Of a stretch of DNA of 64,000 nt, positions 20,889 to 51,071 are shown piece after piece (the stretch's first letter is position 1; every line of letters begins with the position of its first letter). A program made the translations under genes and the position numbers. Source of the stretch: a virus (Duplodnaviria > Heunggongvirae > Uroviricota > Caudoviricetes). A model generated the notes under the pieces. It saw only the letters and a program-made list of their open reading frames with translations, did not search any database and had not been told where the DNA came from. Where the stretch lies: IMG/VR virus record IMGVR_UViG_3300026549_000033, positions 1-64,000 of that record; one strand, written 5' to 3'.

Positions 20889-21206
20889 ATGAAAGTTAAA
20901 GAACTTTATGAATTTTTGCAGAAGTACTTAGAAGGTGGAAATATTTCCCCTGAAACAGAGGTTATTCTTATAGGAGAATACAATTACGGAGAATCTGTGG
21001 GAAAACCATATATAGCAAATATGAACCTTATTGACGGGACAGAAGTTGTTAAAGAAGATACAAGAGTTGTGGCTATAAGTGTTGACGCTTATTTATATGA
21101 GCATGAAGACACAGGATACTCTCGTATGTGGGTTGATAATGAAGACCTTCAAGACCTTAAAGATAATGACATTGTAGATTGCGGGGATGAAGAGCATGAA
21201 GGTTAA
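20889..21206 (+). CDS. Hypothetical acidic protein, 105 aa.
   Basis: ORF. Confidence 0.45.
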   Translation: MKVKELYEFLQKYLEGGNISPETEVILIGEYNYGESVGKPYIANMNLIDGTEVVKEDTRVVAISVDAYLYEHEDTGYSRMWVDNEDLQDLKDNDIVDCGDEEHEG

Positions 21207-21999
21207 GCTCATACAAATAACACAAAATCCAATAGATGTAATGTGGACAGCGGCAAGAACCTGTTATTCAGAAAAGTCCCCTATTGAAATGTGGGAAGAC
21301 AGGTATGGGGCTACTTCAGACGATTGTGAACATACTCAAGAGTGGACAGAACAGTGTGTAGAGAAGCATTGGAATCTTGTTAAAAAAGTATTGGATAGTG
21401 GACATCAATCAATTGCAGAACATGTTTATTTTACATTTGCCATTGAAGGTATAAGTAGAGCATGTTCACACCAATTAGTAAGACATAGGGCAGGTATTGT
21501 ATTTTCTCAACAATCCCAAAGGTATGTAGAAATAAAAGAGTCATTACAAGAGCTCAGGGATATAAGAGAACACTGTGGGGTTGCTAAAACTGCTGGGACT
21601 GTAGAGAAATATTTTGTTCCAAATCAAGATGGAATGTCGGGTTTAAAATATGCCGAATTAGATTGTCTTATAGAATATAGGAGACTTATAGAAGAAGAAA
21701 GTATGGCACCAGAAGATGCTAGAGCAATTCTTCCAAATGCAACAAAAACAAATATTACAATGTCTATAAATTATAGGGAGCTAATTCATATTTGTAATTT
21801 AAGATTATGTACAAGAGCTCAAAAAGAAATAAGAGATCTATTCAACTTTATTGTAAAAGAAGTTGAAAAAGAAGACGAAAGATTAGTAAAATACCTCGTC
21901 CCGCAGTGTGAGGTGCTTGGGGTTTGTACTGAGCACCAATGCTGCGGTCGTAAACCGAAGTTAAAAGAAATAATGGAAGTTTATAAAAGAGAAAAGTAA
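21187..21999 (+). CDS. thyX: Flavin-dependent thymidylate synthase ThyX.
   Basis: SHQLVRHRAGIVFSQQSQRY matches the ThyX RHR-x7-S signature. Confidence 0.8.
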   Translation: MKSMKVKLIQITQNPIDVMWTAARTCYSEKSPIEMWEDRYGATSDDCEHTQEWTEQCVEKHWNLVKKVLDSGHQSIAEHVYFTFAIEGISRACSHQLVRHRAGIVFSQQSQRYVEIKESLQELRDIREHCGVAKTAGTVEKYFVPNQDGMSGLKYAELDCLIEYRRLIEEESMAPEDARAILPNATKTNITMSINYRELIHICNLRLCTRAQKEIRDLFNFIVKEVEKEDERLVKYLVPQCEVLGVCTEHQCCGRKPKLKEIMEVYKREK

Positions 22000-22023: not shown

Positions 22024-23559
22024 ATGAATTTCATTCCACACTTATCCCCAATTTTAATTGTTGCGGGTGTATCATTTTTAGCAGTCTCATTATTCATTAA
22101 ATGGGTGTTGAGCCTGCGTGTAGTAGTACCTACGTCAGAAGTACACGTAGTACAAAGAGCTGGAGAAACTATCCTCTACGGAAAGGCAGCTCAAACAAAA
22201 GATAATAAAACAGGAAATGCTTATTATGCTTTTCCGTCTTGGCTACCTGTTATTGGAATTACAAAAACTGTTTTAGGAACAGGAATTTTTGACAGAGACC
22301 TTAAAGACTATGAAGCTTATGATAAGGATCGTTTACCTTTCATGGTTGACGTAAAAACATTTTTTAGAATTAAAGATTTTGATGCAGCTTCTATTCGTGT
22401 AACAAGCATGAAAGAGTTAGAAGAACAGTTAGACGGTATTGTTCAAGGGGCTGTTCGTTCGTTACTTGCTAAAGAAGACCTTGAATCTATAATGTCTGAA
22501 AGAAATAAATATGGTAAGCAGTTTACAGAAGAAGTTGCTCCTCAGTTAGAACAATGGGGTGTAGAAACTGTAAAGAATGTTGAATTAATGGATATTAGAG
22601 ACTCAAGAGATTCCAAAGTTATTCAAAATATAATGGCTAAAAAGAAATCTCAAATTGAAATGGAAAGTCGTACAACTGTTGCTGAAAATACTAAAAAAGC
22701 AAGTCAGGCTGAAATAGAATCTCAGAAAGAAATTGCTCTTAAACAACAGGACGCTGAAAGAGAAGTTGGATTAAGAAAAGCTCAAGTAGCTCAAGAGGTT
22801 GGTATAGCTGACGAAAAACAAAAGCAAGAAGTTCAAGCACAGGCTAAAGTAACTGCTGAAAAAGAAATGGAAGTTCAAAGAGTGCGTGAAGTGCAAACTG
22901 CTGAAATTGAAAAACAAGCAGCCACAGTCAGAGCTGAACAAGATAAAGCTGTTATTGAAGTTAATGCTAAGGCAGCAGTAACTAAAGCGGACGCTGACAA
23001 AAACGTTAGAATTCTTAATGCTGAAGCAAGTCAACAACAGACTATCCTTGAGGCAGAAGCAACGAAGCAACAGATTGAATTAAGAGCAGATGCTGACCTT
23101 AAAGTTGCTACAAACACTGCTAAAGGTATTGAGGCAAAAGGTAAGGCTCAGGCAGAAGCAGATAAATTGAGTAAGATAGCCTCAGTTCAAGACCAAGTAA
23201 CTTTAGCAAAAGAAGTTGGTGAAAATAAACCTTATCAAGAATTCTTAATTGCTCAAAAGCAGATTGAAGTACAAGGTAGCGTAATGAAAGAAGTAGGTGT
23301 CGCTCAAGCTCAGAATTTGGGTAATGCAGACATTAAAATGTTCGTTAATTCAGGGTCAGTTCCTGAAGGAGTAGGTAAGGCTGCAAGTATATTTAATCCT
23401 GATACAGCTATGAATGTAGCGTCTATGCTTGAAGCTTTCAAATCAACTCCTATGGGAGCAGAAATAGTTGATAAGCTACTTGGTACGGGTAACGTTGTTA
23501 AAACTGTAGAGACAATTGAACAAGTTAAGACAGCTGTGAATAAACATAAAGATAAGTAA
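22024..23559 (+). CDS. SPFH/band-7 (flotillin-like) membrane protein with a long coiled coil, 511 aa.
   Basis: N-terminal TM, SPFH-like region, then an extended EA/Q-rich coiled coil (AEREVGLRKAQVAQEVG ...). Confidence 0.6.
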   Translation: MNFIPHLSPILIVAGVSFLAVSLFIKWVLSLRVVVPTSEVHVVQRAGETILYGKAAQTKDNKTGNAYYAFPSWLPVIGITKTVLGTGIFDRDLKDYEAYDKDRLPFMVDVKTFFRIKDFDAASIRVTSMKELEEQLDGIVQGAVRSLLAKEDLESIMSERNKYGKQFTEEVAPQLEQWGVETVKNVELMDIRDSRDSKVIQNIMAKKKSQIEMESRTTVAENTKKASQAEIESQKEIALKQQDAEREVGLRKAQVAQEVGIADEKQKQEVQAQAKVTAEKEMEVQRVREVQTAEIEKQAATVRAEQDKAVIEVNAKAAVTKADADKNVRILNAEASQQQTILEAEATKQQIELRADADLKVATNTAKGIEAKGKAQAEADKLSKIASVQDQVTLAKEVGENKPYQEFLIAQKQIEVQGSVMKEVGVAQAQNLGNADIKMFVNSGSVPEGVGKAASIFNPDTAMNVASMLEAFKSTPMGAEIVDKLLGTGNVVKTVETIEQVKTAVNKHKDK

Positions 23560-23585
23560 ATTTAGCGTATTTTTGAATTCCATGT

Positions 23586-23617
23586 TCCCTACTCAAAAGG
23601 TAGGGAATTTTTTTTTA
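23586..23617 (+). terminator. Rho-independent terminator (ccctac-tcaaaag-gtaggg plus a T9 run).
   Basis: Perfect 6-bp stem followed by aatttttttttt. Confidence 0.8.
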
Positions 23618-23622
23618 TAAAA

Positions 23623-23651
23623 TTTGCATATTTTTTAATTTATGCTATAAT
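23623..23651 (+). promoter_or_regulatory. Promoter TTTGCA-N17-TATAAT.
   Basis: aaaatttgca ... tataat with 17-nt spacing, upstream of prs. Confidence 0.55.
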
Positions 23652-23680
23652 GAAATTATAAAAAGGGAAGGCATGAAAAT

Positions 23681-24658
23681 ATGAGAGTAGACAGTGTGGC
23701 AGCTTCTTCCCCTCAAGTAAATTTCAAAGGAAGAAATATTATGGGAAGAGAAGCAATCAGATTAATACCTTCGTCAATGAGAACACCTCTTGAAGAAAGT
23801 ATAGCAAAATTAATGGAGATGGTTCCAACTCCAACAGTAGTAAAAAAATTTGCTAATGGAGAAACTTATGTAAACATTATGGGAGACATGAGAAATAAAG
23901 ACGTATTCCTCATGCCTACTATTGGAAGAGCAGTAAATGACAACCTTATGGAGACTTATCTTAAAGCCGACGCAGCTAAAAGAATGGGGGCCAATCGTGT
24001 TGTAGCAGTTATGCCAAACTTTCCGTATGGAAGGCAGGAGCGTAAAACTCAATTTGGTGAACCTATCTCTGCAAGGTTGAACCTATCTTTGTTGCATGCT
24101 TCAGGAGTTGACGAAGTTATTTCTACAGACATTCACGCAGCAGCTCTTCAGGGGTTTGCTCGTCAAATGAAATTAACAGATCTAAGCTCTTTAGAAGAAA
24201 TGACAGCTTACTTTAAGGGTAAAGTAAACTTTAAACCCGAGAATTTAGTAGTAGTCTCCCCTGATTTAGGAGGAGTAAAAAGAGCAGATAAATTTGCTAA
24301 AGAACTTGGCTGTGAAAAAGCAATTATTTATAAAAATAGAACAGGGCATAATCAGGCAGTAGCGGAATCCTTATTAGGCGACGTAGAAGGTAAGGATTGT
24401 ATTATTTATGATGATATTATAGATACTGCAGGGACAATAACAGAAGCTGCAAGAATGCTAAAAGAAAACGGAGCAAATAAAATTTATATTGCGGCTTCTC
24501 ATGGATTGTTCAACGGCCCCGCTTTAGAAAGGTTAGAAAAGGCTCCTATTGAGGAAGTAGTAGTTACAAATTCAGAGTTAAAACCTGCTTTAGATAAAAT
24601 TAAGCAAGTAGATATAGCTCCTAAAATTGTGGGTACTATTTTAGATATTTCAGGTTAG
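23681..24658 (+). CDS. prs: Ribose-phosphate pyrophosphokinase (PRPP synthetase family).
   Basis: KKFANGETYVNI, NDNLMETYLKADAAKR, VMPNFPYGRQERK, VVVSPDLGGVKRA and CIIYDDIIDTAGT (PRPP-binding motif). The likely true start is the ATG at 23741 (MGREAIRL), which has a better RBS. Confidence 0.8.
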   Translation: MRVDSVAASSPQVNFKGRNIMGREAIRLIPSSMRTPLEESIAKLMEMVPTPTVVKKFANGETYVNIMGDMRNKDVFLMPTIGRAVNDNLMETYLKADAAKRMGANRVVAVMPNFPYGRQERKTQFGEPISARLNLSLLHASGVDEVISTDIHAAALQGFARQMKLTDLSSLEEMTAYFKGKVNFKPENLVVVSPDLGGVKRADKFAKELGCEKAIIYKNRTGHNQAVAESLLGDVEGKDCIIYDDIIDTAGTITEAARMLKENGANKIYIAASHGLFNGPALERLEKAPIEEVVVTNSELKPALDKIKQVDIAPKIVGTILDISG

Positions 24659-24664
24659 GAGGAC

Positions 24665-24892
24665 GTGATGAGTACTCTTATTGATAACTTAATTGATTTA
24701 AGAACTTGCAATCAAGAATTTAATGGAGCATGGTATATAGCCAAACCTTATGAATTCTTTGGGTTTGCTACTTTTATACGTAGATTAAAAGACGCTTGGA
24801 GAGTTTTGACAGGAAAATCAAGGGCTTACCATTTTTATGAAGATACTTTAAAGAAAAGACCTAAAGTTATACATATGATAGAAGGAGAGTAA
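24665..24892 (+). CDS. Hypothetical protein, 75 aa.
   Basis: ORF. Confidence 0.45.
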   Translation: MMSTLIDNLIDLRTCNQEFNGAWYIAKPYEFFGFATFIRRLKDAWRVLTGKSRAYHFYEDTLKKRPKVIHMIEGE

Positions 24893-24898
24893 AGAAGT

Positions 24899-25372
24899 AT
24901 GAGCTGCTTATTAGACCACGCAAGGAATGAATTAAAATTAGCTGGGTACAATATTGATACCCCAGATAAGAATAGCTTTGAATCTGACGAAGATTATGGA
25001 AATGCATGCGCCAAAAATGCTTATGAAATGTTAAAAGTATTTTCTTCGGCAGATCATTCAGGGTTTTCAGCAGGAGCCACACTTGCTTTATTTAATAAAT
25101 TAGCAGAATTTAAGTGCCTGACTCCTTTAACCAATAATCCTGACGAATGGATGGATACTTCGGAGTTCCAAGGAGAACCTGTAGGAACGCATTTTCAGTC
25201 AAAAAGACAGAGCTCTTGCTTTTCAGACGACGGATTAAAAACTTACTATGATATAGATGAAAAAGCAAATAAAGAGTATGACCTCGATGAAAAAGGGAAA
25301 AGAACAGGTTGGGTTCATATGAAACCCCGTGAAGAGTGGGTTCACCATAAATTAGAGGATTATAAAAAATGA
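24899..25372 (+). CDS. Hypothetical protein, 157 aa.
   Basis: ORF. Its stop overlaps the first copy of the 41-bp repeat (aaaATGA). Confidence 0.5.
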   Translation: MSCLLDHARNELKLAGYNIDTPDKNSFESDEDYGNACAKNAYEMLKVFSSADHSGFSAGATLALFNKLAEFKCLTPLTNNPDEWMDTSEFQGEPVGTHFQSKRQSSCFSDDGLKTYYDIDEKANKEYDLDEKGKRTGWVHMKPREEWVHHKLEDYKK

Positions 25373-25662: not shown

Positions 25663-28386
25663 ATGAGATATTTATTTGTATTAAGAGGGGCACCCGCCTC
25701 AGGTAAGAGTACATGGATTAAAGAAAATGAATTAGAACCATATACATTAAGTACAGATAGTTTAAGATTAATGTATCAATCTCCTGTAACAACTGCAGAA
25801 GGAGATAGAAAAATTTCCCAAAATAATGATAAGGAAGTTTGGAATTTACTTATGGAGCTTCTTGAAAGAAGAATGGAAAATGGTGAGTTAGTTGTTATAG
25901 ACGCTACTCATTATAAATCTTCCCTTATAAATAGATATAAAGACCTTGTATCAAAATATAGATATAGAGTTTATGTTGTAGATTTTTCTAATGTATCAGA
26001 AGAAGAATTAAAAAGAAGAAATGCTACAAGAGGATTTAGAAAAGTTCCAGATGAAGTAATTGAGAAAATGGTTGTAGCCTTAGCGGATACTAATGAAGTT
26101 AAAAAACAATATAAAATAGTATCTCCTGAAGAAGCAATTACATTAATAAATTCTCCCTTAGAGCCATTTGACGTAAATGAATATGAAAAAGTTGTAATCT
26201 TTGGGGATATACATGGTTGTTATGACCCATTAAAAGAATATTTTGATAAGAATCCATTTAATGAAAATTACAATTATATTTTCTGTGGAGATTATTTAGA
26301 TAGGGGATTACAAAATAAGGAAGTTTTGGAATTTTTAATTTCTTTAAAAGATAAAAAGAATTGTGTATTCTTAGAAGGTAATCATGAGAAATGGTTGAGA
26401 ATATATTCTCAAAAAGATTATGATATGGATTACTACGAGAATAGACCTGTTGAGTATAAAGACCCATTTGTTACTAAATTAATTGCTCAATTAAAAGACA
26501 AACAAGTTATTTTAGAGAAAAAGATAAATAAGAATAAAAATATGTCTGAGGAATTGTCTAAGCTATTAAGGGAATCTTGGGAAACAAATCCTGAGAACAG
26601 AGAAGTATTTTATAGATTTGAAAAAATAAATGTTCCTGAAAAACAAAAGGAATTACATAAAGAAATACAAGAATGTGAATACAGGTTAGAAAAACTAATT
26701 AGATTAATTACTGTGCTGCAGCATGAAGAGCACAATACGAAAGATTTTATACAAAATTGTAGAGAATGGTTTAAAGAAGAGTTCTCTACGGATTTATCTT
26801 TAGATATTACAAACATTTTAGAAAAGAATTATAATGTGGAATCTAAAAGAAAACAAAATCCAATTCGTTCTTTAGAATTTATAAAAAGAACATATCCACA
26901 AATCAAAGATATTGATAAAACAGAAATAAGAAGATTCTGCGATAGATTAGCACAAATGAGTTATTTTACATTTAATGGACATGATTATTTGGTAACTCAT
27001 GGTGGTGTACCATGTATGCCTACAATGAAAACACAAACAATAGAATTAATTAAAGGTGTAGGTAAATATGAAGACCATGATAAAATAGATAAACAATTTA
27101 ATGAAAATGAAGAAAAGAATAAAACATGGACAGTCCAAATACACGGTCATAGAAATGTAATGAGAGTTCCTGTTGTATCAAATGAGAACATGACATTCAA
27201 TTTAGAAGGTCAAGTAGAGTTTGGTGGACACTTAAGAATTGTAGAACTTGGAGATTTTCCTGAAGGACATTGGAATATTGTAGAAATTAAGAACGAGACT
27301 TATGATATTCCAGAAGTAAAAGAGGAAGAAGAAAAATCTGACATAGAACTGCTTAGAGAAATGTATGATAGTAAATGGGTACAGGTTAAAAACTTAAAAG
27401 ATAATGTAATAAGTTTTAACTTTACAAGAGACGCTTTTGAAAAAGGAAAGTGGGATACAATAACAACAAAAGCAAGAGGTTTGTTTATAGATAAAACAGA
27501 CGGGCACGTTGTAGGAAGAAGTTTTGATAAATTCTTTAACTATAGACAACATGAAACAACAGAACCTGCTTATATGAAGGAACATATTAAGTGGCCTTTA
27601 ATTGGATATAAAAAAGAAAATGGATTCTTGGGTATTGTATCTAAAGATAAAAATGGAGTACATTTCTTTACTAAATCTTCTGATGAAGGTGACTATGTAA
27701 ATTGGTTTATAGGTGTACTATGTGATAATTATGGAATAACTTATATATCCAATAGTAGATATTCAGATATTTATAACAAATTAGTTAATGAAAGAGATGA
27801 AATAGATAAGGTTAATCGTAGAACTGAATTAAATATTTTAAAAACAGAATTAACTAATAAATTATCACCATTATTAGCGGAAGGGTGTTCCTATGTATTT
27901 GAATGTATAGATAAAGATAATGACCCACATATTATAAAATATGATAGTAATAAGGTAATCTTGTTAGAAATCTTTGATAATCAACTAAAAGAAAAACACT
28001 ACAATTATGAGGATTTAAAAACAATAGGGCAGGCTTTAAATGTTCCTGTTAAAGAAAAAGCACTTGTATTTAATAACTGGGAAGAATTTGAAGAATGGAA
28101 AGATAAATTCAGACAAGGATTATCTCAATGGGATTGTAAGCATGAAGGATATGTATTTGAAGACCAAAATGGATATAGGGTTAAGTTTAAATCTTCATTC
28201 TATAATTTTTGGAAACAAATGAGAGCTTTAAAAGACGTTATGGCAGGCGGAAGAACAAACAAGAAAGTTTATAAAACTAAAGAAGAAATACAGGTTGTAA
28301 AACTCATGGAAGAATTAGGTAGAGATAGGCTTAAAGAAATGTCTATTATTGATGTAGAAGATATGTTTTATGAAAGGTATAAGTAA
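25663..28386 (+). CDS. pnkp: Trifunctional polynucleotide kinase-phosphatase-ligase (Pnkp-type RNA repair enzyme), 907 aa.
   Basis: N-terminal P-loop kinase similar to T4 Pnk (RGAPASGKSTW ... RRNATRGFRKVPDEVIEKM). Central calcineurin-type phosphoesterase (GDIHGCYD, GDYLDRG, GNHEKW). C-terminal domain with a lysine-nucleotidyltransferase-like KENG motif (YKKENGFLG). Confidence 0.7.
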   Translation: MRYLFVLRGAPASGKSTWIKENELEPYTLSTDSLRLMYQSPVTTAEGDRKISQNNDKEVWNLLMELLERRMENGELVVIDATHYKSSLINRYKDLVSKYRYRVYVVDFSNVSEEELKRRNATRGFRKVPDEVIEKMVVALADTNEVKKQYKIVSPEEAITLINSPLEPFDVNEYEKVVIFGDIHGCYDPLKEYFDKNPFNENYNYIFCGDYLDRGLQNKEVLEFLISLKDKKNCVFLEGNHEKWLRIYSQKDYDMDYYENRPVEYKDPFVTKLIAQLKDKQVILEKKINKNKNMSEELSKLLRESWETNPENREVFYRFEKINVPEKQKELHKEIQECEYRLEKLIRLITVLQHEEHNTKDFIQNCREWFKEEFSTDLSLDITNILEKNYNVESKRKQNPIRSLEFIKRTYPQIKDIDKTEIRRFCDRLAQMSYFTFNGHDYLVTHGGVPCMPTMKTQTIELIKGVGKYEDHDKIDKQFNENEEKNKTWTVQIHGHRNVMRVPVVSNENMTFNLEGQVEFGGHLRIVELGDFPEGHWNIVEIKNETYDIPEVKEEEEKSDIELLREMYDSKWVQVKNLKDNVISFNFTRDAFEKGKWDTITTKARGLFIDKTDGHVVGRSFDKFFNYRQHETTEPAYMKEHIKWPLIGYKKENGFLGIVSKDKNGVHFFTKSSDEGDYVNWFIGVLCDNYGITYISNSRYSDIYNKLVNERDEIDKVNRRTELNILKTELTNKLSPLLAEGCSYVFECIDKDNDPHIIKYDSNKVILLEIFDNQLKEKHYNYEDLKTIGQALNVPVKEKALVFNNWEEFEEWKDKFRQGLSQWDCKHEGYVFEDQNGYRVKFKSSFYNFWKQMRALKDVMAGGRTNKKVYKTKEEIQVVKLMEELGRDRLKEMSIIDVEDMFYERYK

Positions 28387-29660: not shown

Positions 29661-30338
29661 ATGAGCACAATAAATTTAAAAGTAAAACAAGCAAATGAAA
29701 GATATGAGTTATCTGTTAACCAAAAAATAGAAGAATATGTGTCTAAGTTAGAAGAAAAAGTGCAGAAGGTTATTCGTTTGTCGTCTAATGGGCACGAATA
29801 TTGGTCAAAAACAGTCACAATGATCAGGCATGAATACGACTTAAATCAGATTGCACTATGGATAAGAGCTGTAATCTTAGCTAAAATGGATTCTTATTAT
29901 TTGTATTTTACTTTTGGGAAATACAAAGGTAGAATAGTTCAAGACATTTTGGAAGAAGACGAAAGCTATTGTCATTGGTTTCTTCACGAGGTTAGGGGAA
30001 ATGACTTTAATACTTTAAAAATACTGGACTATTTGTCAAAGTGCATATTTTACGGTCAACAAACAGTAATACTTGATATACCTTGGGGTGTTCAAATGCA
30101 GTATTATAAGTATTGGTTAGGAGACCCATATGTAATTTTTGAAGAAGTTATATCTGAACTTCCAGATAAAATAGCTAAAGAGGCAAGAGAAGATAAGAAC
30201 TTTATCTTAGAGTTTTTCTCCTATTCAGGCTGTAAGTCAAAATCTTATAATATAAAGAGCTCTGATTTGGACTGTGGTGGAATGTCGCCATGGGAAGAAA
30301 TAATGAGTGACGTGATAGACTACGGAGACTTATGTTAA
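29661..30338 (+). CDS. Hypothetical protein with a DUF3820-like motif (FGKYKG ... Y..WFL), 225 aa.
   Basis: YFTFGKYKGRIVQDILEEDESYCHWFL. Confidence 0.4.
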   Translation: MSTINLKVKQANERYELSVNQKIEEYVSKLEEKVQKVIRLSSNGHEYWSKTVTMIRHEYDLNQIALWIRAVILAKMDSYYLYFTFGKYKGRIVQDILEEDESYCHWFLHEVRGNDFNTLKILDYLSKCIFYGQQTVILDIPWGVQMQYYKYWLGDPYVIFEEVISELPDKIAKEAREDKNFILEFFSYSGCKSKSYNIKSSDLDCGGMSPWEEIMSDVIDYGDLC

Positions 30339-30703
30339 TGATATTTACAGGTTATTACGCAAAACTTAATCAATATAAAACCCTTGGTTTAGAACCCATA
30401 GCAATTTCAGGGAAAAGACCTAACTTTTATGAAGGATTATATTATCCTGATTTTGCTCCACGTTATTGGATGTATCAAAGGTGGAAGGATAAAGATATTA
30501 CAAATGAAGGGTACACGATAGAGTATAAAAATTATTTGAATACTTTAGATAAAGAAGAAATAAGAAAGGACTTTGAATCCTATAATGGAGAAGGAAATCA
30601 TTGCATACTTCTTTGTTACGAAAAACCTCATGATTTCTGTCATAGACATGTTCTTGCTGAATGGCTTGAAGAGAACTTTGGATGGAGAATTGAGGAAATA
30701 TAA
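30332..30703 (+). CDS. DUF488-like small protein, 123 aa.
   Basis: LLCYEKPHDFCHRHVLAEWL matches the conserved C...CHR motif of the family. Confidence 0.4.
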   Translation: MLMIFTGYYAKLNQYKTLGLEPIAISGKRPNFYEGLYYPDFAPRYWMYQRWKDKDITNEGYTIEYKNYLNTLDKEEIRKDFESYNGEGNHCILLCYEKPHDFCHRHVLAEWLEENFGWRIEEI

Positions 30704-30709
30704 AGAGTA

Positions 30710-31453
30710 ATGGCAAAAAAGACATTTTTTCTGCGTGGTTGCAGAACTATAGATAAAAATAAGAAAACCTATGAAGAGAAGGCTCAAGAAACAAAACAGC
30801 ATTCTGCAAGATTAGCTGAAATGCAGAGGTACGTTGATATGTCTGAGGAGAAAAGAAATCTCCTTATGGACTTAGTTCTTAATGGCAAAAGCTCTGACAG
30901 TGATGAATCTCTACTTGATAAGGGTGTTATTATTTACATTCAGTTTTTAGACGTTATTGCTCAAGTAGAACAAGATTTTAAAGATAAAGGAATTGAAGTA
31001 CTTGTAATTCAAGGGAGTACTAAAGATAAGAAACGTGGCGAGATAGCTAAGGAGTTTCGTGGAGACCCGAAAAGTAAAGTTGTCTTAATTTCTAATGCTG
31101 CAGGGGAAAGTTTAAATCTTCAGGCAACAAACGAAATTTTTCTTTACGATATCCCGCCCGGAGTCGGAAAATTTAATCAGACTATTGGTAGAATAGCAAG
31201 AAGTTTTAGTAAATTTGAAGAAGAAGGACGGAGCTTCTATATTCACTATGTTATTGTAGAGGACACCTTAGACGTCTACAAACCTATTTTATTGTCTTCA
31301 AAGAAAGAACTTGAAGAAGAGATACTTCATGCAGATACTATAAATCTTAAAGGTACAGGAAGTTTTGATAATGAAGTCCTTAAGAGAATAAGAAAAGATA
31401 TGCTGTGGAAAGAAAAAGAGAAGATGAAGGCTAAAAGGAAAGGCGAAATTTGA
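30710..31453 (+). CDS. SNF2-family helicase, C-terminal lobe only (Helicase_C, motifs IV to VI), 247 aa.
   Basis: VLVIQGSTKDKKRGEIAKEF, VVLISNAAGESLNLQATNEIFLYDIPPGVGKFNQTIGRIAR. Confidence 0.7.
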   Translation: MAKKTFFLRGCRTIDKNKKTYEEKAQETKQHSARLAEMQRYVDMSEEKRNLLMDLVLNGKSSDSDESLLDKGVIIYIQFLDVIAQVEQDFKDKGIEVLVIQGSTKDKKRGEIAKEFRGDPKSKVVLISNAAGESLNLQATNEIFLYDIPPGVGKFNQTIGRIARSFSKFEEEGRSFYIHYVIVEDTLDVYKPILLSSKKELEEEILHADTINLKGTGSFDNEVLKRIRKDMLWKEKEKMKAKRKGEI

Positions 31454-31478
31454 CACCTCTTAAATTTCCTTGTATAAT
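31450..31478 (+). promoter_or_regulatory. Promoter TTGACA-N17-TATAAT.
   Basis: ttgaca at 31450-31455, a 17-nt spacer, tataat at 31473-31478. Confidence 0.6.
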
Positions 31479-31500: not shown

Positions 31501-31755
31501 ATGTTTACTGACGCAAAGATGTCTCTTTGTAATTCACATGATACTATAAGTTACTGGGCAAGAGACGTAAAGAAAAATCTTAAAAAGGCTATTAAAGAAG
31601 AGAATTATTCTAAGATAGGTGATTTAGTAGAAACTATCAATTTAATCATTGAAGAAGCAAGAGTAGCCAAAAAGAAGGGACAGCATATGGAAAACAGGCT
31701 TAAGGCTTACCATGACAGTATAGTTAAGCTTGGTTTTAAGAGAGTTGGGAGATAG
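31501..31755 (+). CDS. Hypothetical protein, 84 aa.
   Basis: ORF after the promoter. Confidence 0.45.
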   Translation: MFTDAKMSLCNSHDTISYWARDVKKNLKKAIKEENYSKIGDLVETINLIIEEARVAKKKGQHMENRLKAYHDSIVKLGFKRVGR

Positions 31756-31757
31756 AA

Positions 31758-32264
31758 ATGACTAAAGTTATCAATATTTTTGGAGCTCCCGGGGCGGGTA
31801 AGAGCACTTTAGCTTTTGGGTTAGCTTACAGGTTAAAACTAAAGGGTTGTCACGTAGATATAGCTCACGAATATATTAAAGAAAAGTTGTATGAGGGAAC
31901 TCCTTATCCTTTTCATGACCAACTTTATACCTATGCAAAGCAAAATAAAAAATTAAATCAGTTGAATAATAAAGTTGATTATATAGTTACAGATAGCCCT
32001 TCTGTACAATGTGTGGCTTATGCTGAGAAAGAACCTGACGTCTATAGACAGATGGCCTTAGACTACTTTAATCAGTACGACAATTTAAACTTTTATATTG
32101 AAAGAACACATGAATATCAACCTTCGGGACGAAATCAAACAGAAGAGCAAGCTAAGTTAGTAGGTGAAAGAATTTTAACTACCTTAAATGAGTTAGAAAT
32201 TCCTTATACAATTTTACCCGCAAATATAGCTTTAGAGAATATATTAGAAATTTTAGGAGAATAA
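31758..32264 (+). CDS. Small P-loop kinase (AAA_28/NadR-type or nucleotide/nucleoside kinase-like), 168 aa.
   Basis: FGAPGAGKSTLAFGLAY Walker A. Size and layout fit small nucleoside or nucleotide kinases. Substrate unknown. Confidence 0.45.
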   Translation: MTKVINIFGAPGAGKSTLAFGLAYRLKLKGCHVDIAHEYIKEKLYEGTPYPFHDQLYTYAKQNKKLNQLNNKVDYIVTDSPSVQCVAYAEKEPDVYRQMALDYFNQYDNLNFYIERTHEYQPSGRNQTEEQAKLVGERILTTLNELEIPYTILPANIALENILEILGE

Positions 32265-33056
32265 ATGGATCAGGCAAAAGAACAAGTTTTCAAAAAACCA
32301 AGTGTTCTGATTTGTGGATACGGCATAGTGGGAAAGCACCTAAAGGAAACTTTTGAATGGGCTGATATTTATGATAAGTATAAGCCTGAATTCAGCAAAG
32401 TTACTAAAGAGTATGATTTCTGCTTTATAAGTGTTCCAACCCCTATGAAGGAGAGCGGGGAAGCTGACGTTAGTCAAGTCGAAGACGTTATTAAAACAGT
32501 CAAAGCAAAGTTGTATATTATCAAGTCTACTGTTCCTCCTAATACAACAAAGGCTCTTTCTGCTTTACATAAAAAGTGTATAATTTTCAGTCCTGAGTAT
32601 CAAGGTAATACTCAGCACGCGAATATTTCTTATAATTTTGTAATATTAGGAGGAGATAGAGCTTTCACAAACAAGGTAGCTCAGCTATATCAGTTAGTGC
32701 ATACCTGTGACCTAAGAATATATAAAACGGATAGTACAACTGCTGAGTTATGTAAATACATGGAGAATTCGTTTTTAGCTTGTAAGGTTACGTTCTGTAA
32801 TGAATTCTATCGTATAGCAAAACAGCTTAAAGTAGATTATACAGAGCTGAGAGAGCTCTTTGTAGCAGACTCTCGTATAGGAAGGAGCCATACCTTTGTT
32901 TATGAAGACTACCCTTATTATGACAGCAAGTGCTTTAACAAAGATTTACCGGCTATAGTATTTGAAATGAATAAAAATGGGTACGACGCTTCTTTCGTAA
33001 AAGCAATCATAAGTACAAATGATAAATTTAAAATGGAGGAAACTAATGAAGGATAA
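32265..33056 (+). CDS. Truncated UDP-glucose/GDP-mannose dehydrogenase-family protein lacking the C-terminal UDP-binding domain, 263 aa.
   Basis: ICGYGIVGK Rossmann motif, [41 protein letters not shown], and [11 protein letters not shown] where the catalytic Cys is expected. Start coupled to the upstream kinase (taaATG). Confidence 0.55.
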
Positions 33057-34305
33057 ACAAGTAGAAGGATACATACTAGAAGAACTAATAAGACAACAAA
33101 ATACAATAGAGCTTATAGCTTCTGAGAATATTGTAAGCAAAGATGTACTAGAGGCAGCAGGTTCTATATTTACAAATAAATACGCAGAAGGTAAGCCCTT
33201 TAAGAGGTACTATAATGGGTGCCACGTCGTAGATTTTATGGAACAGACAGCTTGTGATAGATTTAGAGAGTTGTTTAATACAGACTATCATGTAAATGTT
33301 CAGCCTCACTCAGGAGCTCAGGCAAATATGGCTGTATTTGAGGCATTACTTAATTACGGAGATACTGTTTTAAGTATGGATTTATCTAATGGAGGACACT
33401 TAAGTCATGGTTCTCCTGTTAATTATTCAGGTAAGCATTTTAATGTAGTACAATATGGTATTAATGAAAACGGTGAAATAAACTATGAGGAAGTTTTACA
33501 AATAGCTGTATTAAAAAATCCAAAACTTATTATTTGTGGTGCTTCTAATTATTCAAAAATAATTGATTTTAAAGAATTCGCTAAAATTAGAAATGAGCTT
33601 AATAATTTATATCCAAAGGACGAGCATTACCTCCTTGCTGATATAGCCCATATTGCAGGACTTGTAGCAGGTGGTGTTCACCCGTCTCCATTCCCTTGGG
33701 CAGACGTGGTAACAACAACTACACATAAATCTTTGAGGGGACCTCGTGGCGGTGTAATTGCTTGCAGACCTGATTTTGCTAAGAAAATAGATTCTGCTGT
33801 ATTCCCCGGTATCCAAGGCGGTCCTTTAGAGCACATAATAGCAGCAAAAGCTGTTTGCTTTTATGAAGCCTTACAACCTGAGTTTAAAGAATACGCCGAA
33901 CAAATAATAAAGAATGCAAATACACTCTGCGGAGTTCTTAATTACAGAGGATTTAAAATTGTAGGAGGTATGACCGAAAATCACCTTATGACAGTGGATT
34001 TAAGAAGGAGCTATATGTGCGAAGAGCTCACAGGAAAGGACGCTGCTAACCTTTTAGATAAATATGGAATTACTGTAAATAAAAACACAGTTCCGAATGA
34101 CCCAAGAGGACCTTTTGTTACTTCAGGACTTAGAATAGGAGTTCCTGCTGTGACAACTCGTGGATTTAAAGAAGAAGATATGAAAGAAGTTGGTAATATA
34201 ATAGCAGACATTCTTCAGTATCATGATGAAAAGTGGGAAGATATAAGGTTAGCAGCAAAAGGTAGAGCTCTTGAATTATGTAAAAAATATCCAATATATA
34301 AATAA
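33046..34305 (+). CDS. glyA: Serine hydroxymethyltransferase.
   Basis: [32 protein letters not shown] (PLP-lysine motif). ATG at 33046 with a ggagg RBS. The tracked ORF starts 27 nt upstream. Confidence 0.85.
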
Positions 34306-34318
34306 GAAAGGAAGTATA

Positions 34319-34696
34319 ATGGGAGTAGACTATTTTAGTTGTGAAAACTGCGGAAGAGCCGCTTCAGAATATGATGAAATTCATTGCGAAAAGTGTGAAA
34401 GTTCACTTTGCTCTTGTGCTATGCCTGACGAGATAGCTCAATTATGTGGATGTTGGGAGGACATATGGAACTTTATCAATACTGATATAAATAATAAGAT
34501 TATCCCGAGCTCTGCATGGAAGGGTGAAGACGGCAAAAAGTATGTTAAACTATTTAAGAAGTACTTATCTGTTAATGACGATTACGGAGTAGTTCTTAAA
34601 GAGAAGTATTGTCCTATTTGTCAAAAAAGAAAAGAAGACGAAAAAGACCCTGAGTACAAAGAGTACTTAAGACTTAAGGCTAAGTTTGAAAAGTAA
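34319..34696 (+). CDS. Cys-rich zinc-ribbon protein, about 125 aa.
   Basis: CENCGRAASEY ... CEKCESSLCSC ... CPICQKRK. ATG at 34319 with an aaggaag RBS. Confidence 0.5.
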   Translation: MGVDYFSCENCGRAASEYDEIHCEKCESSLCSCAMPDEIAQLCGCWEDIWNFINTDINNKIIPSSAWKGEDGKKYVKLFKKYLSVNDDYGVVLKEKYCPICQKRKEDEKDPEYKEYLRLKAKFEK

Positions 34697-34699
34697 AAT

Positions 34700-34728
34700 T
34701 TGACAGTTTACAAAAAGTAATATATAAT
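34700..34728 (+). promoter_or_regulatory. Promoter TTGACA-N17-TATAAT.
   Basis: ttgaca at 34700-34705, a 17-nt spacer, tataat at 34723-34728. Confidence 0.65.
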
Positions 34729-34773
34729 AAGAATATAATGTTGGCAACAACAATAAAGAGAGAGAAAAAGTTA

Positions 34774-36453
34774 ATGAAGAAAGAATTATCACAAGAAGCT
34801 ATAGGGCTTCTAAAGTACCTTATGAAAAATAAGGATACTGAGGATTTTAGTGGTTGCTTCGGAGCGAGTACTATTTGTCATAGAAAAGGAAGAGTTAAAG
34901 TATCATATATTCAACCTTTATTAAATGAACTTTTAAGAGCTAAAGCTATTACTCTTTCAAAAGGGTTTTTAAGAGCTCCTAAGTATATCTTAAAGACAGA
35001 TGTATCTTCTAAAATTATAGAAGAGCACGAAGAAGAGGGTACAATTTATACAGAAGAGTATCGTGAGGCTCTTAATGACGAAATTAAAAATTACAAAAAA
35101 TTTGTAATTACTACTGTAGTTATGGGGAAAGAAGTAAATAAAGAGTTTGCAGATTCTTTAAGAAATTATGCTAAAAGGAATAATGCTCTCCTGATAGCTC
35201 TCCCGTGTGAAGACGTTGTTAGTAGAGGAAAGAAGGCTCAGAAAACTTTAGAAATAAGCCCTGAATTAAGTGACTTTAGAGTAGTGTTTAAAGATACTTA
35301 TATAAATAGGAATTTATGTCTTTGCGCTATTAAAGTTTCTGCGAAACAAATAAATCCTTTAACAGGTCTTGATAGACTAACTGTTCAAAGGCAAGCTTCA
35401 ATCATTGTGGCTTCCCCAAAGGTATTTCTGAAGTATGTACCGAATATGCACTATGACATTCCTCCTGCATTAATGACTACAGGAGCTGTAACAGTAAATA
35501 ATTATGATACAGATAGATATATGTCTAAAAGAACTTCAACATTAGCTGAGGGAGACCATACTTATGGAGCTGTAATTGTAGAAGTAGAGAATGATAGTAT
35601 TTTTCATTTTAGGCATGTTCAAGCGTCTCCGTATAATTCGATAACCGACATGGGAGTTGACTACTTACCTGACGGGTCAGCTAACGCTATGAATGATACA
35701 GTTATGATAATGGGAGATTCTCATACAGGGTATCACGACAGAGAGCTGCACGAAGCAGTTATGAACGCAGCTTTAAAAACAGGAGTAGATTCTGTGTTTT
35801 TACATGACATTTTCAATGCTACTTCTGTAACTCATCATGATAAAGGTAAAGGAATTACTAGAGCAAGAAAGGCTAAAGAAAACAAACTGAACTTAGAGTT
35901 AGAACTTGCAGCCTTAAGAAATTATTTAAATATTATTAGGTTACAAGGGATGGATATATTTATAGTTCCTTCTAATCATGATACTATGCTCCTTAGGTGG
36001 CTTGAAAGTGGCGGGTACATTGACGACCCTCAGAATTATGAGTTAGGTGTTAAACTTGCAGCTGCAGCAGTTAAAGGATATGACCCTCTTCAGTACGCCA
36101 TAGAAGAAGAATTCGGTTATAAAGAAGAAAAAGTTCATTGGTTAAAAGAAGACGAAAGCTGTAAAGTCTACGACGTTGAGTGCAGTATGCACGGATCAGC
36201 GGGGGCTAATGGTTCTCGTGGTAATTTACAAATCTTTGAGAGAGGATTGGGAAATTGCGTCACAGCTCACACGCATTCTGCAGCTATAATAAGAGACGCT
36301 TTTTGTGTAGGTACTGTGGGTGTAATGGATCAAGGTTATAATAAAGGACTATCAAGTTGGACTCGTACATGCTGTTTAATTTATAAAAATGGAACAAAGC
36401 AGCTTATAAACTTTATTCCTGATAGCAAAGGTCTTTATAAGTACACTTTGTAG
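34774..36453 (+). CDS. Two-domain protein: an unknown N-terminal domain of about 300 aa plus a C-terminal calcineurin-like metallophosphoesterase.
   Basis: GDSHTGYHD, LHDIFN, VPSNHD, SMHGSAG and TAHTHSA match phosphoesterase motifs I to VI. Start taken at the second ATG (34774), which has an RBS, rather than 34738, which abuts the -10 element. Confidence 0.55.
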   Translation: MKKELSQEAIGLLKYLMKNKDTEDFSGCFGASTICHRKGRVKVSYIQPLLNELLRAKAITLSKGFLRAPKYILKTDVSSKIIEEHEEEGTIYTEEYREALNDEIKNYKKFVITTVVMGKEVNKEFADSLRNYAKRNNALLIALPCEDVVSRGKKAQKTLEISPELSDFRVVFKDTYINRNLCLCAIKVSAKQINPLTGLDRLTVQRQASIIVASPKVFLKYVPNMHYDIPPALMTTGAVTVNNYDTDRYMSKRTSTLAEGDHTYGAVIVEVENDSIFHFRHVQASPYNSITDMGVDYLPDGSANAMNDTVMIMGDSHTGYHDRELHEAVMNAALKTGVDSVFLHDIFNATSVTHHDKGKGITRARKAKENKLNLELELAALRNYLNIIRLQGMDIFIVPSNHDTMLLRWLESGGYIDDPQNYELGVKLAAAAVKGYDPLQYAIEEEFGYKEEKVHWLKEDESCKVYDVECSMHGSAGANGSRGNLQIFERGLGNCVTAHTHSAAIIRDAFCVGTVGVMDQGYNKGLSSWTRTCCLIYKNGTKQLINFIPDSKGLYKYTL

Positions 36454-40286: not shown

Positions 40287-40826
40287 ATGAATAGAAAAGA
40301 TAATTATATAGGTACACATTTAGTGATGGATATAACTTCTTATAATAGAGAAGCTTTAAGGGACGAGGGTAAGGTAAGCTCATATTTATCAGATCTTATC
40401 AGATTAGCAGATATGACTTGTTTAGTAGCACCGCAGACTTTTAAGTTCCCTTTTGATAATGAGTATAAGAAGTTCTTGGAAAAGTTAAGGGAAGAAGGAA
40501 CAACTTCTCCTTTAATTGAAGAAAAGTTAGCTATGCTTGATTATAATGAAACTGAAGGTTCGGGAATTACAGGAATCACTGTACTTTGTGAAAGTCATGC
40601 TGCAGTGCATACATTTCCTGAAAAAGACGACCCATTCATGTCAGTCTGCCTGTACTCTTGCAAGTCATTTGACGCAGACAAAATTATAGAATATACTAAT
40701 GAGTACTGGGAAGTTAAGGATAACCACATAGTAGTTATGCAAAGACACGTAGGACTTCCTCAGCAAATTGAACAAAAGGAATTACATCTTAAAAAGAACA
40801 GCAAAGTAATAGAATTGGTAAGATAA
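40287..40826 (+). CDS. S-adenosylmethionine decarboxylase proenzyme (pyruvoyl-dependent, SpeD/SpeH-like).
   Basis: TVLCESHAAVHTFPEKDDPFMSVCLYSC matches the ESHxxxHTWPE ... C motif around the self-cleavage Ser. Confidence 0.6.
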   Translation: MNRKDNYIGTHLVMDITSYNREALRDEGKVSSYLSDLIRLADMTCLVAPQTFKFPFDNEYKKFLEKLREEGTTSPLIEEKLAMLDYNETEGSGITGITVLCESHAAVHTFPEKDDPFMSVCLYSCKSFDADKIIEYTNEYWEVKDNHIVVMQRHVGLPQQIEQKELHLKKNSKVIELVR

Positions 40827-41416
40827 TGAGTAAAGAAGTTTGGATATGGAGTGACCCACATTTCGGTCATGAAAATTGTTACACGAAATTTAAAAATTAT
40901 GATGGGACTCCCATGCGTCCTTGGAACAACATGCAAGAAGCTGAAGAATATATGATTCAAGAGTATAATAAACTTGTTCATGAGGGAGATACGTGCTATT
41001 GGTTAGGTGATATTTGTGGTATTCAAACTTACGCAGAGAAAATAATGCCAAGATTTAATAAGTCACGAAGAATTTTAGTATTAGGTAATCACGACGCAAA
41101 GCTAGGGGCAAAATACTGGTTAAAATGGTTTAATAATATTCGTGGAGACTTTAATAGAGAAAATCATATTTTTAGCCACTTCCCTGTTTGCTCAGGTTCT
41201 AAAGGTAGGTTCAAAAGAAATGTACATGGACATACCCATAGTAATTTTATTACTATAAATAACGAAGGTAAAATCAAAGACATGTGGTACAGGAATGTAT
41301 CTGTTGAAGCTATAAAATTTCGCCCTATTAATTTTTCTGAAATTCTAGAAGAAACAGAGAGATTTATCAATAAAGGACTTATAGTTATACCTGAAAAAGG
41401 TGACTCAATAGTTTAG
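40826..41416 (+). CDS. Calcineurin-like metallophosphoesterase, 196 aa.
   Basis: WSDPHFGH, WLGDICG, LGNHDAK, HGHTHS. Confidence 0.65.
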   Translation: MSKEVWIWSDPHFGHENCYTKFKNYDGTPMRPWNNMQEAEEYMIQEYNKLVHEGDTCYWLGDICGIQTYAEKIMPRFNKSRRILVLGNHDAKLGAKYWLKWFNNIRGDFNRENHIFSHFPVCSGSKGRFKRNVHGHTHSNFITINNEGKIKDMWYRNVSVEAIKFRPINFSEILEETERFINKGLIVIPEKGDSIV

Positions 41417-41440
41417 ACTTTGCTTTAAAGGATTACAGAA

Positions 41441-47693: not shown

Positions 47694-47711
47694 GACAAAA
47701 GAGGGACAAAG

Positions 47712-48314: not shown

Positions 48315-48384
48315 TAAATTTCTCAAGTTTTTAAAATGTACTTTACAAAATTGTTATTTTTCACATTTTTGTAAAGTAGAAAAT

Positions 48385-48413
48385 TTGACATCTTTATATA
48401 AAGATGCTATGAT
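48385..48413 (+). promoter_or_regulatory. Promoter TTGACA-N17-TATGAT.
   Basis: ttgaca at 48385-48390, a 17-nt spacer, tatgat at 48408-48413. The tracked ORF start at 48385 lies inside this promoter. Confidence 0.55.
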
Positions 48414-48435
48414 AAAGGTAAAGGAGAGAAAGAGC

Positions 48436-48981: not shown

Positions 48982-48982
48982 C

Positions 48983-49249: not shown

Positions 49250-49250
49250 A

Positions 49251-49445: not shown

Positions 49446-51071
<1,626 letters not shown>

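Follow-up and report, generated by a model that had tools for sequence, protein, structure and literature searches.

UDP-glucose 6-dehydrogenases (UGDH, or Ugd; PDB 3gg2, 1dli and the human 2q3e) combine a Rossmann domain, a central domain with a long helix and a C-terminal domain that, to our knowledge, is UDP-binding in every characterised UGDH. Bacillus phage SP-15 encodes a UGDH-family enzyme, gp146, that occurs with glycosyltransferases (GTs) in a cluster proposed for glucuronate-containing DNA hypermodification (PMC5977210). Phage 5hmC hexuronic-acid clusters pair a GT-A with an NDP-sugar epimerase and transfer uronic acid; no UGDH-like gene is mentioned in the text of that report (bioRxiv 2023.12.21.572611). 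Short two-domain proteins of 255-256 aa with conserved catalytic residues, annotated as "UDP-glucose dehydrogenase" (PHROG 9148), are found in Microbacterium cluster EC phages, in the order ParB_N, TAGT glycosyltransferase, dehydrogenase and MgsA_C-like protein, and in Campylobacter Firehammervirus, near QueE-like radical-SAM genes. The Microbacterium phage paper merely lists the gene, and the literature searched gave no papers on truncated UGDH in phages and no biochemical data on any short-form member.

The 263-aa protein studied here, encoded in a 64-kb stretch of phage DNA (the window), is of this short type. It shares with UGDH the Rossmann and long-helix central domains, the catalytic Thr, Glu, Lys, Asn, Cys and Asp and the Arg contributed across the dimer, and its predicted fold superposes on UGDH with a TMq of about 0.8. 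Unlike UGDH, it lacks the C-terminal UDP-binding domain (about 120-170 aa) and an insert of roughly 30 aa in the N-domain, and its loop before the catalytic Cys is longer and rich in aromatic residues and His. SP-15 gp146, in contrast, has 436 aa including the C-terminal domain and is 23% identical. The Microbacterium and Firehammervirus forms have the same two domains but are 23-30% identical and lie in other neighbourhoods. As in the 5hmC clusters, a GT gene (GT2) in this phage lineage accompanies, and here overlaps, a gene for an SDR resembling UDP-glucuronate (UDP-GlcA) 4-epimerase (UGAepi), whereas the 84 kb examined showed neither the cytosine methyltransferase nor the 5mYOX/TET of those clusters. 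No near-identical phage was found among deposited phages.

Organization of the locus

The dehydrogenase gene is the third of a five-gene unit. The features of the window that matter here are as follows.

31450..31478, + strand: sigma-70 consensus promoter (TTGACA-17 nt-TATAAT, 12/12 match), upstream of the five-gene unit
31501..31755, + strand: 84-aa ORF with no assigned function, first gene of the unit, also called on identical contigs
31758..32264, + strand: 168-aa P-loop protein with a nucleoside/nucleotide-kinase fold (AAA_28; PF13521, 2.9e-15)
32265..33056, + strand: 263-aa two-domain protein of the UDP-glucose/GDP-mannose-dehydrogenase family (PF03721 and PF00984, without PF03720)
33046..34305, + strand: serine hydroxymethyltransferase (SHMT), 419 aa from ATG 33046 (PF00464, 7.4e-145; gene call on an identical contig)
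34319..34696, + strand: Cys-rich 125-aa ORF, last gene of the unit, before the next promoter
34700-34728: next consensus promoter, 3' of the 125-aa Cys-rich ORF
21196..21999, + strand: ThyX, FAD-dependent thymidylate synthase (TIGR02170, 1e-47, above cut-off; PF02511 Thy1)

The 84-aa ORF gave only a sub-threshold H-NS N-terminal match in Pfam. An earlier note on this DNA, made from the letters alone, had described start-stop coupling between the P-loop ORF and the dehydrogenase ORF, and the TAA of the former indeed directly abuts the ATG of the latter (taaATG). The overlap of the dehydrogenase with SHMT that it described also exists (11 nt at the dehydrogenase stop), but the SHMT start lies in the gene calls at 33046, with the RBS GGAGG at 33035, and not at 33019. 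With a 12/12 sigma-70 match, co-transcription of kinase, dehydrogenase and SHMT from the shared promoter at 31450 is plausible.

A compact dehydrogenase with a complete catalytic set

Pfam identified the N-terminal Rossmann NAD(+)-binding domain PF03721 (2.4e-10, above cut-off) and the central helical/dimerisation domain PF00984 (2.8e-19) in the 263-aa protein, and no match to the C-terminal UDP/GDP-binding domain PF03720; 40 aa follow Cys223. Both the UGDH motifs and the missing domain had thus been read correctly in the earlier note, as had the catalytic Cys in KCFNKDL (222-228). The remaining motifs are GYGIVG (18-23), VPTP (57-60), KSTVPPNTT (87-95) and NSFLACK..FCNE (168-180). The Rossmann glycines are G18, G20 and G23, with a conserved D37 where beta-2 ends, and the catalytic set consists of T89, E111, K164, N168, C223 and D227. 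In alignments of 13-65 sequences, the three glycines, S88, P110, R204 and K226 do not vary, and the six catalytic residues vary little or not at all. The TIGR03026 score, 133.8 bits, is below the NCBIfam cut-off of 189.8. The best PDB sequence match is the UGDH 3gg2 (7e-18), to which the catalytic residues align, CFxKD among them. The structure prediction and Foldseek search that the earlier note had proposed gave an AF2 model with a pLDDT of 95.3 and a 31-residue helix at 157-187, and all 50 among the PDB matches listed were UGDH. We consider the product of the ORF to be most likely a compact, working enzyme of the NDP-sugar 6-dehydrogenase superfamily with the full UGDH catalytic set. The loop before the catalytic Cys reads SHTFVYxDYPxYDSKC, three residues longer than the canonical GxGFGGSC, and this change is family-wide. 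Because the C-terminal domain is absent and this loop is remodelled, canonical UDP-sugar binding should not be assumed for the protein.

The ORF could have been a frameshifted or split piece of an ordinary UGDH, as the earlier note recognised, and this was ruled out by its homologs, which are equally short. Searches for the short form, which occurs in phages and cells, gave 1,666 matches, 518 stretches on viral contigs and 260 matches in GTDB species genomes; the best 120 of the 1,666 are all 236-298 aa long and contain the N-terminal and central domains only. No PF03720 domain is present among the called genes of the window, and a C-terminal-domain HMM run against its six frames gave nothing beyond a weak match to the dehydrogenase itself, which is an artefact of one wrongly included seed (L144). 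In two Acidobacteriota loci, a canonical UGDH of 434-437 aa is encoded two genes away from the short form, a hint that the latter does more than duplicate UGDH.

Association with glycosyltransferases

The earlier note had suggested a check for DNA-hypermodification genes beside homologs in other phages. What dominates the neighbourhoods of the 63 dereplicated viral loci is GTs, which are adjacent or fused to the dehydrogenase in 21 and within 6 kb in 36; among the 103 immediate viral neighbours, SHMT occurs once and AAA_28 never, and Pfam assigns eight to GT2, six to TAGT, six to GT1 and three to Nucleotid_trans. The cellular set of 65 loci is similar, with a GT adjacent or fused in about 22-25 and within 6 kb in 42 (immediate neighbours: GT2 7, GT1 6, TAGT 6, GT4 5, GT92 3). 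Fusions exist in both orders, as dehydrogenase-GT92 (L020) and as GT2-dehydrogenase (L037, L046, L105, L119). We cite only Pfam-verified fusions and excluded L121, L139 and L145, as the ORF caller over-extends starts at high GC. The 61%-identical homolog P0019 overlaps the stop codon of a GT2 gene, and in an independent case (L080) a UGAepi-like SDR immediately follows the dehydrogenase. The Microbacterium gene order is conserved as a cassette from metagenomic contigs to cluster EC phages.

No GT was found inside the window, either by Pfam or by tblastn of all family neighbours. However, contig L179, which is 97.3% identical to the window over 11.4 kb with full synteny, carries a GT2, a UGAepi-like SDR and a GT99-like protein (Glyco_transf_99) 0.6-5.4 kb upstream of the window, so that the cluster, which is known from this 97%-identical strain and not from the window sequence itself, would lie ~33-38 kb from the dehydrogenase. 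The SDR gene (L179:5080-6000), which overlaps the GT2 gene, matches the UDP-GlcA 4-epimerase structures 6zl6 (6.7e-55) and MoeE5. Aligned with 6zl6, its SSS corresponds to T126-S127-S128, and Y149/K153, T178 and R185 (in FTVYGPRQR) are kept (BcUGAepi numbering); the protein thus has the SDR fold, the YxxxK motif, the Ser/Thr carboxylate-binding triad and the Arg185 of the UDP-GlcA 4-epimerase signature, whose roles have been described (PMC12338863). The GT99-like protein matches WbbB (1.5e-34). With GTs dominating the neighbours of the family and this cluster upstream in the lineage, the suggestion in the earlier note that a UDP-sugar is an improbable substrate is unsupported.

A proposed supply of uronic acid for phage glycosylation

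We suggest, with a probability of about 0.6, that the protein is a minimal sugar 6-dehydrogenase that provides hexuronic acid for phage glycosylation, and that the kinase and SHMT are separate nucleotide-metabolism genes. The domain content, catalytic residues, fold, GT association and fusions across the family and the UGAepi-like and GT genes of the 97%-identical strain are observations; from them we infer the substrate and product of the dehydrogenase and its link to the GTs of the lineage. The enzyme would use UGDH chemistry, a four-electron oxidation in which two NAD+-dependent steps turn the C6 alcohol of a hexose into a carboxylate, with a thiohemiacetal and a thioester formed on Cys223. 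The product would be a hexuronic acid, most simply UDP-glucuronate, which in this lineage would likely be converted to UDP-GalA by the UGAepi-like SDR and then used by phage-encoded GTs. A virion protein, a host surface polymer or DNA are candidate targets.

It is possible, if rather unlikely, that the short dehydrogenase does not use a free UDP-sugar in the canonical way, and either oxidises the hexose after its transfer to an acceptor (a DNA base, a protein or a teichoic-type polymer) or acts only when docked to a GT that holds the nucleotide. Either would account for the loss of the UDP-binding domain, and the family-wide remodelling of the pre-Cys loop, the GT fusions in both orders and the conserved ParB_N/TAGT cassette all fit with it. 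Also consistent with it, DNA-linked sugars are substrates of TAGT-family enzymes (PMC13390438), phage enzymes that modify DNA have ParB homologs as activators (PMC13229309), and hexuronic-acid-modified cytosine has been produced by phage GTs and by epimerase and GT pairs (bioRxiv 2023.12.21.572611). However, UGAepi-like SDRs, which act on UDP-GlcA, occur beside or with the short form, and this argues for a soluble UDP-GlcA product. In addition, all uronic acids in glycans that we know of are made at the nucleotide-sugar level, which counts against oxidation after transfer. A more specific proposal, which we regard as unlikely, makes the two-domain dehydrogenase a module that phage glycosylation systems keep specifically for uronic acid; docked or fused to a GT, or working after transfer, it would yield hexuronic-acid-decorated DNA in the ParB/TAGT cassettes and possibly through the GT2-epimerase set of this phage. 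If this were true, the short family would supply the enzyme so far missing as the origin of the HexA-modified bases in recent reconstitution experiments.

That the enzyme is a 6-dehydrogenase for another activated sugar, such as UDP-GlcNAc, UDP-ManNAc, UDP-GalNAc or GDP-mannose instead of UDP-glucose, seems improbable. The superfamily spans all these specificities, and UDP-ManNAc and GDP-mannose dehydrogenases are among the NCBIfam and PDB matches; the canonical UGDH alongside the short form in two loci and the DegT-type sugar aminotransferases among its cellular neighbours also agree with such a role. Against this, UDP-glucose 6-dehydrogenases are the best matches in both sequence and structure, and the associated SDR bears a UDP-GlcA-specific epimerase signature. 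Manipulation of host metabolism, for example a drain of UDP-glucose that alters host wall glycosylation or blocks superinfection and feeds no phage glycan, would suit an early/middle-type operon with nucleotide-metabolism genes around it and a distant GT cluster, but is very improbable, as the family-wide linkage and fusion to GTs argues that the dehydrogenase supplies a transferase.

The kinase and SHMT genes

The earlier note saw in the three coupled genes a possible pathway for nucleotide or DNA-base modification, in which, for instance, a hydroxymethyl-pyrimidine would be phosphorylated and oxidised and SHMT would give the one-carbon unit. The common consensus promoter and start-stop coupling speak for it, P-loop kinases belong to known thymidine hypermodification clusters (PMC13229309), and a CH2OH group is in principle within reach of UGDH chemistry. 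The kinase, however, is absent from the locus of the closest relative (72% identical), where the dehydrogenase-SHMT pair is kept, and its homologs in other phages (45-80% identity) lie amid replication and nucleotide genes without the dehydrogenase. The kinase is present in 96 phage records and the dehydrogenase in 92, and among the matches listed no phage is shared. SHMT or AAA_28 is next to the dehydrogenase nowhere in the 63 viral and 65 cellular loci except in that relative. ThyX was the only thymidylate-synthase-type enzyme found, and Pfam detected no ThyA-type hydroxymethylase, 5mYOX/TET (TET_JBP) or amino-acid:DNA transferase in the window and 10 kb on each side, which together make up 84 kb of the ~195-kb genome. 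The proposed pathway is largely refuted by this comparative genomics, and we consider it highly unlikely.

The kinase (phrog_2107, 6.9e-18; AF2 pLDDT 92.5) has as best Foldseek matches the NadR kinase domain, thymidylate kinases and deoxynucleoside kinases, all generic nucleoside/nucleotide kinases. Its phage matches are jumbo or large phages with the annotation "thymidylate kinase", and known T-hypermodifying phages were not among the matches listed. An "AAA-ATPase" beside the short dehydrogenase of Microbacterium phages was considered as its counterpart and rejected; it gave no BLAST alignment and is an MgsA_C-like protein. The NadR match also raised the idea of NAD salvage, in which AAA_28 would serve as ribosylnicotinamide kinase and so provide for the NAD-dependent dehydrogenase, but neither NAMPT nor NMNAT was found. 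The P-loop protein is an independent nucleotide-metabolism gene and no conserved partner of the dehydrogenase, and would act as a separate nucleoside/nucleotide kinase. The SHMT is accounted for, because ThyX in the same window consumes methylene-THF, which SHMT would regenerate; the literature searched gave no papers on phage SHMT and hypermodification. Despite their common promoter and translational coupling, the three genes would thus be neighbours rather than one pathway.

Implications

Since the reading as a DNA-modification module fails, follow-up work on the kinase and SHMT can be spared, and any link to DNA glycosylation would run through sugars and not through these two genes. The short subfamily is large and uncharacterised, and in phage genomes its members routinely carry the annotation "UDP-glucose dehydrogenase". 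Its catalytic machinery is complete, yet it is without the domain by which all UGDHs studied hold the nucleotide handle, and it is found repeatedly beside or fused to GTs, including TAGT-type DNA sugar transferases. The true substrate of the short enzyme would reveal how phages obtain acidic sugars and would tell if UGDH can operate without its UDP-binding domain. From it one would also learn if phage DNA or virions depend on the short form for glycosylation with uronic acid, which bears on the evasion of restriction and immune recognition.

The gene unit

The window has a G+C fraction of 0.34 and nearly all of its genes lie on the plus strand. A close DNA relative was not found among deposited phages, and metagenomes contain contigs of about 195 kb that are identical to the window. 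Two perfect promoters flank a unit of five genes: an 84-aa ORF, a P-loop protein, the short dehydrogenase, serine hydroxymethyltransferase (SHMT) and a Cys-rich ORF.

31450-31478, + strand: promoter, TTGACA-17-TATAAT
31758-32264, + strand: P-loop protein (AAA_28), 168 aa; TAA stop directly abuts the dehydrogenase ATG
32265-33056, + strand: dehydrogenase, 263 aa; PF03721 and PF00984
start 33046, + strand: SHMT; GGAGG ahead of the start, 11-nt overlap with the dehydrogenase stop
34319-34696, + strand: Cys-rich ORF, 125-141 aa, several CxxC; last gene of the operon
34700-34728: second promoter, TTGACA-17-TATAAT

The upstream promoter, the taaATG coupling and the overlap with the SHMT start are as the earlier note had described them. 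Next after the Cys-rich ORF, and under its own perfect promoter, lies a gene (34738-36453) for a T5 A1-like 'DNA transfer'/metallophosphoesterase protein (phrog_1745, 1.7e-94).

A conserved two-domain dehydrogenase

The dehydrogenase is a conserved two-domain enzyme and not a fragment, because the short-form family is conserved and a C-terminal domain was not found elsewhere within the 64-kb window. A search of 5.8 billion proteins identified 1,666 relatives, of which the best 120 are all 236-298 aa long with two domains only. Relatives are also encoded in 518 stretches of IMG/VR contigs and 260 of GTDB species genomes, and in the fetched loci the ORF lengths cluster at 245-300 aa. A frameshifted piece of a full-length UDP-glucose 6-dehydrogenase (UGDH), the alternative raised in the earlier note, is ruled out on the same grounds. 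Every N-terminal and central UGDH motif listed in that note was found in the ORF, and the protein has no match to the C-terminal UGDH domain, as had been claimed.

In the family alignments the NAD motif (G18, G20, G23) is invariant, the UGDH catalytic set (S88/T89, E111, K164, N168, C223, D227) is complete and invariant, and so is R204, the Arg given across the dimer in UGDH. The structure prediction and fold search that had been proposed for the 263-aa protein gave an AlphaFold model with a pLDDT of 95.3, and all 50 PDB matches listed were UDP-glucose 6-dehydrogenases (TM ~0.8 over the query). The enzyme is predicted to work like UGDH, although two hallmarks of the family are missing, namely the C-terminal domain and a score above the curated NCBIfam cut-off.

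Canonical UGDH carries the C-terminal domain, a ~30-aa insert in the N domain and the loop GxGFGGSC, whereas our protein lacks both domain and insert and has a loop, SHTFVYxDYPxYDSKC, that is three residues longer. The SP-15 UGDH, proposed as feeding a glucuronate-containing DNA modification (PMC5977210), is likewise full length. Microbacterium and Campylobacter phages have short forms that already carry the annotation "UDP-glucose dehydrogenase" and correspond to PHROG 9148; in the literature we found neither a description of the missing domain nor biochemical work on the short form. Two Acidobacteriota/Terriglobia MAG contigs (L143 and L157) encode a full-length canonical UGDH of 434-437 aa, C-terminal domain included, and, two genes away in the same locus, a short form of 294-310 aa, which suggests that the two forms are not redundant.

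Glycosyltransferases around the short dehydrogenases

The genes that travel with the short dehydrogenase are glycosyltransferases (GTs). With Pfam-verified GTs taken as seeds, 21 of the 63 viral loci and about 22-25 of the 65 cellular ones have a GT next to the dehydrogenase or fused to it, and 36/63 and 42/65, respectively, have one somewhere in the fetched flanks. The immediate viral neighbours by Pfam are GT2 (8), TET-associated glycosyltransferase (TAGT; 6), GT1 (6), Nucleotid_trans (3) and PLOD-type GT (2), together with methyltransferases; the cellular ones are GT2 (7), GT1 (6), TAGT (6), GT4 (5) and GT92 (3), with teichoic-acid glycerophosphotransferase and DegT aminotransferases as further neighbours. 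A dehydrogenase-GT92 fusion of 561 aa occurs in locus L020, GT2-dehydrogenase fusions in the opposite order occur in L037, L046, L105 and L119, and in the closest homolog that is not syntenic (61% identity) the dehydrogenase gene overlaps a GT2 stop.

A four-gene cassette recurs in metagenomic contigs and Microbacterium cluster EC phages, usually just upstream of the terminase gene.

L039, L042, L047, L058, L064, L070, L017 and L006 (Microbacterium phage Jollipop, 49241-52082): ParB_N protein / TAGT / short dehydrogenase / MgsA_C-like protein

In Firehammervirus phages (Campylobacter phage CP21; L008, 107143-111626), a 256-aa short form sits between a QueE-like radical-SAM gene and a second radical-SAM gene; this neighbourhood is of 7-deazaguanine type and has no GT near the dehydrogenase.

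A sugar cluster upstream of the window

A GT was not found inside the 64-kb window. Contig L179, which is from another strain and extends beyond its left end, is 97.3% identical to it across 11.4 kb with gene order unchanged, and carries a sugar cluster adjoining baseplate genes.

L179:4193-9240, 0.3-5.4 kb before window position 1: GT2, overlapping NDP-sugar SDR, 578-aa protein and Glyco_transf_99, these four at 0.6-5.4 kb, and TSCPD-domain protein

[quoted passage not shown] Aligned to 6zl6, it retains the Ser/Thr triad gripping the carboxylate, Y149/K153, T178 and Arg185, whose roles in UGAepi have been described, and UGAepi enzymes are limited to UDP-GlcA/UDP-GalA (PMC12338863). In another locus (L080), a UGAepi-like SDR directly follows the short dehydrogenase. 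For the GT99-like protein the match is to the Kdo-transferase domain of WbbB (1.5e-34). The GT2 resembles GalT1, TarS, TarP and GT-A enzymes of the chondroitin-synthase type; as called, it aligns only from about residue 40 of GT-A structures onward, so that the gene start may have been placed wrongly.

The kinase and SHMT

The earlier note had proposed that kinase, dehydrogenase and SHMT form a nucleotide or DNA-base modification module, and this is not supported. The closest dehydrogenase relative (72% identity, 198-kb contig L001) keeps the dehydrogenase-SHMT pair, but its locus has no kinase; upstream lie a homing endonuclease, Tad6 and small ORFs. Kinase homologs of 75-80% identity in other large phages lie beside a paralog, clamp-loader subunits and RecA, one of 45% identity lies between nucleoside deoxyribosyltransferase, RNR, dUTPase and ThyX, and none of these loci has a dehydrogenase nearby. 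Among the 103 immediate dehydrogenase neighbours in 63 dereplicated viral loci, SHMT occurs once (in the closest relative) and AAA_28 never. Of the deposited phages, jumbo and large ones (Lak, GAP32-like, Caulobacter and others) carry the kinase family, and Microbacterium, Campylobacter and other phages carry the short dehydrogenase, with no phage in common among the matches listed. Fold matches to the model of the kinase (pLDDT 92.5) are about as good for the NadR kinase domain as for thymidylate kinases and for deoxynucleoside kinases, and the protein is predicted to be a nucleoside/nucleotide kinase, with none of these types favoured.

ThyX uses up methylene-THF and gives back THF, and the ThyX of the window is the obvious partner for SHMT.

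21196-21999, + strand: ThyX (TIGR02170, 1e-47)

The window also encodes DCD/dUTPase, NrdD/NrdG, dNMP kinase and PRPP synthetase.

Other genes of the phage

A SNF2-type helicase is seemingly split into two ORFs, 13.7 kb and ~25 genes apart; the stand-alone C half also occurs in L001.

16146-16985: N half, SNF2-rel_dom/DEAD/ResIII; phrog_62 positions 692-944
30710-31453: C half, Helicase_C; phrog_62 positions 937-1133

A 907-aa fusion of AAA_33 kinase, metallophosphatase and T4 Rnl1-type RNA ligase (25663-28386), with nearby genes for an ExoX-like_C protein (29661-30338) and an 'active DUF488-N3a' protein (30332-30703), resembles a module for RNA repair or counter-defence. Consecutive genes at 22024-25372 encode a Band_7/flotillin-like 511-aa protein, a PRPP-synthetase homolog (TIGR01251, 9e-91), which could be tied to NAD+ or nucleotide provisioning, and a Tad3-family protein (PF25185). 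At 40287-42361, genes for a metallophosphoesterase and a GIY-YIG homing endonuclease come after one for a protein of the AdoMet-decarboxylase family (TIGR03330, 5e-16, under the cut-off); in L001 the GIY-YIG endonuclease upstream of the dehydrogenase is a different and larger one. NrdD/NrdG and GroES/GroEL are phage-encoded (45104-51071 and L180:10891-19230, the latter on a contig extending past the right end), and NrdD/NrdG point to an anaerobic host. Just past the right edge lie a Dam-like MethyltransfD12 and an N6_N4 methyltransferase (L180:10891-19230).

Proposed role of the short dehydrogenase

We consider it probable (about 0.6) that the dehydrogenase supplies a uronic acid for glycosylation. 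It would oxidise the C6-OH of a hexose to the carboxylate with two NAD+ via a Cys223 thioester, yielding UDP-glucuronate, which the SDR would epimerise and the GTs would transfer. The weak point is nucleotide-sugar binding without the C-terminal domain; the aromatic loop and conserved residues specific to the family (R196, H209, T210, S221, K222) may make up for its loss. A rather unlikely alternative answer is that the enzyme depends on a GT partner or acts after sugar transfer. As to the route through UDP-glucuronate, a genome with a predicted UDP-GlcA-specific epimerase would have use for an enzyme that makes UDP-GlcA.

The target of glycosylation may be DNA. In the 84 kb that the analysis covered (window and flanks) we saw neither a 5mYOX nor a hydroxymethylase or a cytosine methyltransferase, which speaks against this, but TAGT-family enzymes are active on sugar-modified DNA (PMC13390438), ParB homologs switch on phage DNA-modifying enzymes (PMC13229309), and phage epimerase and GT pairs put hexuronic acid on 5hmC (bioRxiv 2023.12.21.572611). 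In the wider family, the cassette of ParB_N protein, TAGT, short dehydrogenase and MgsA_C-like protein may be a DNA-glycosylation system that includes a uronic-acid step.
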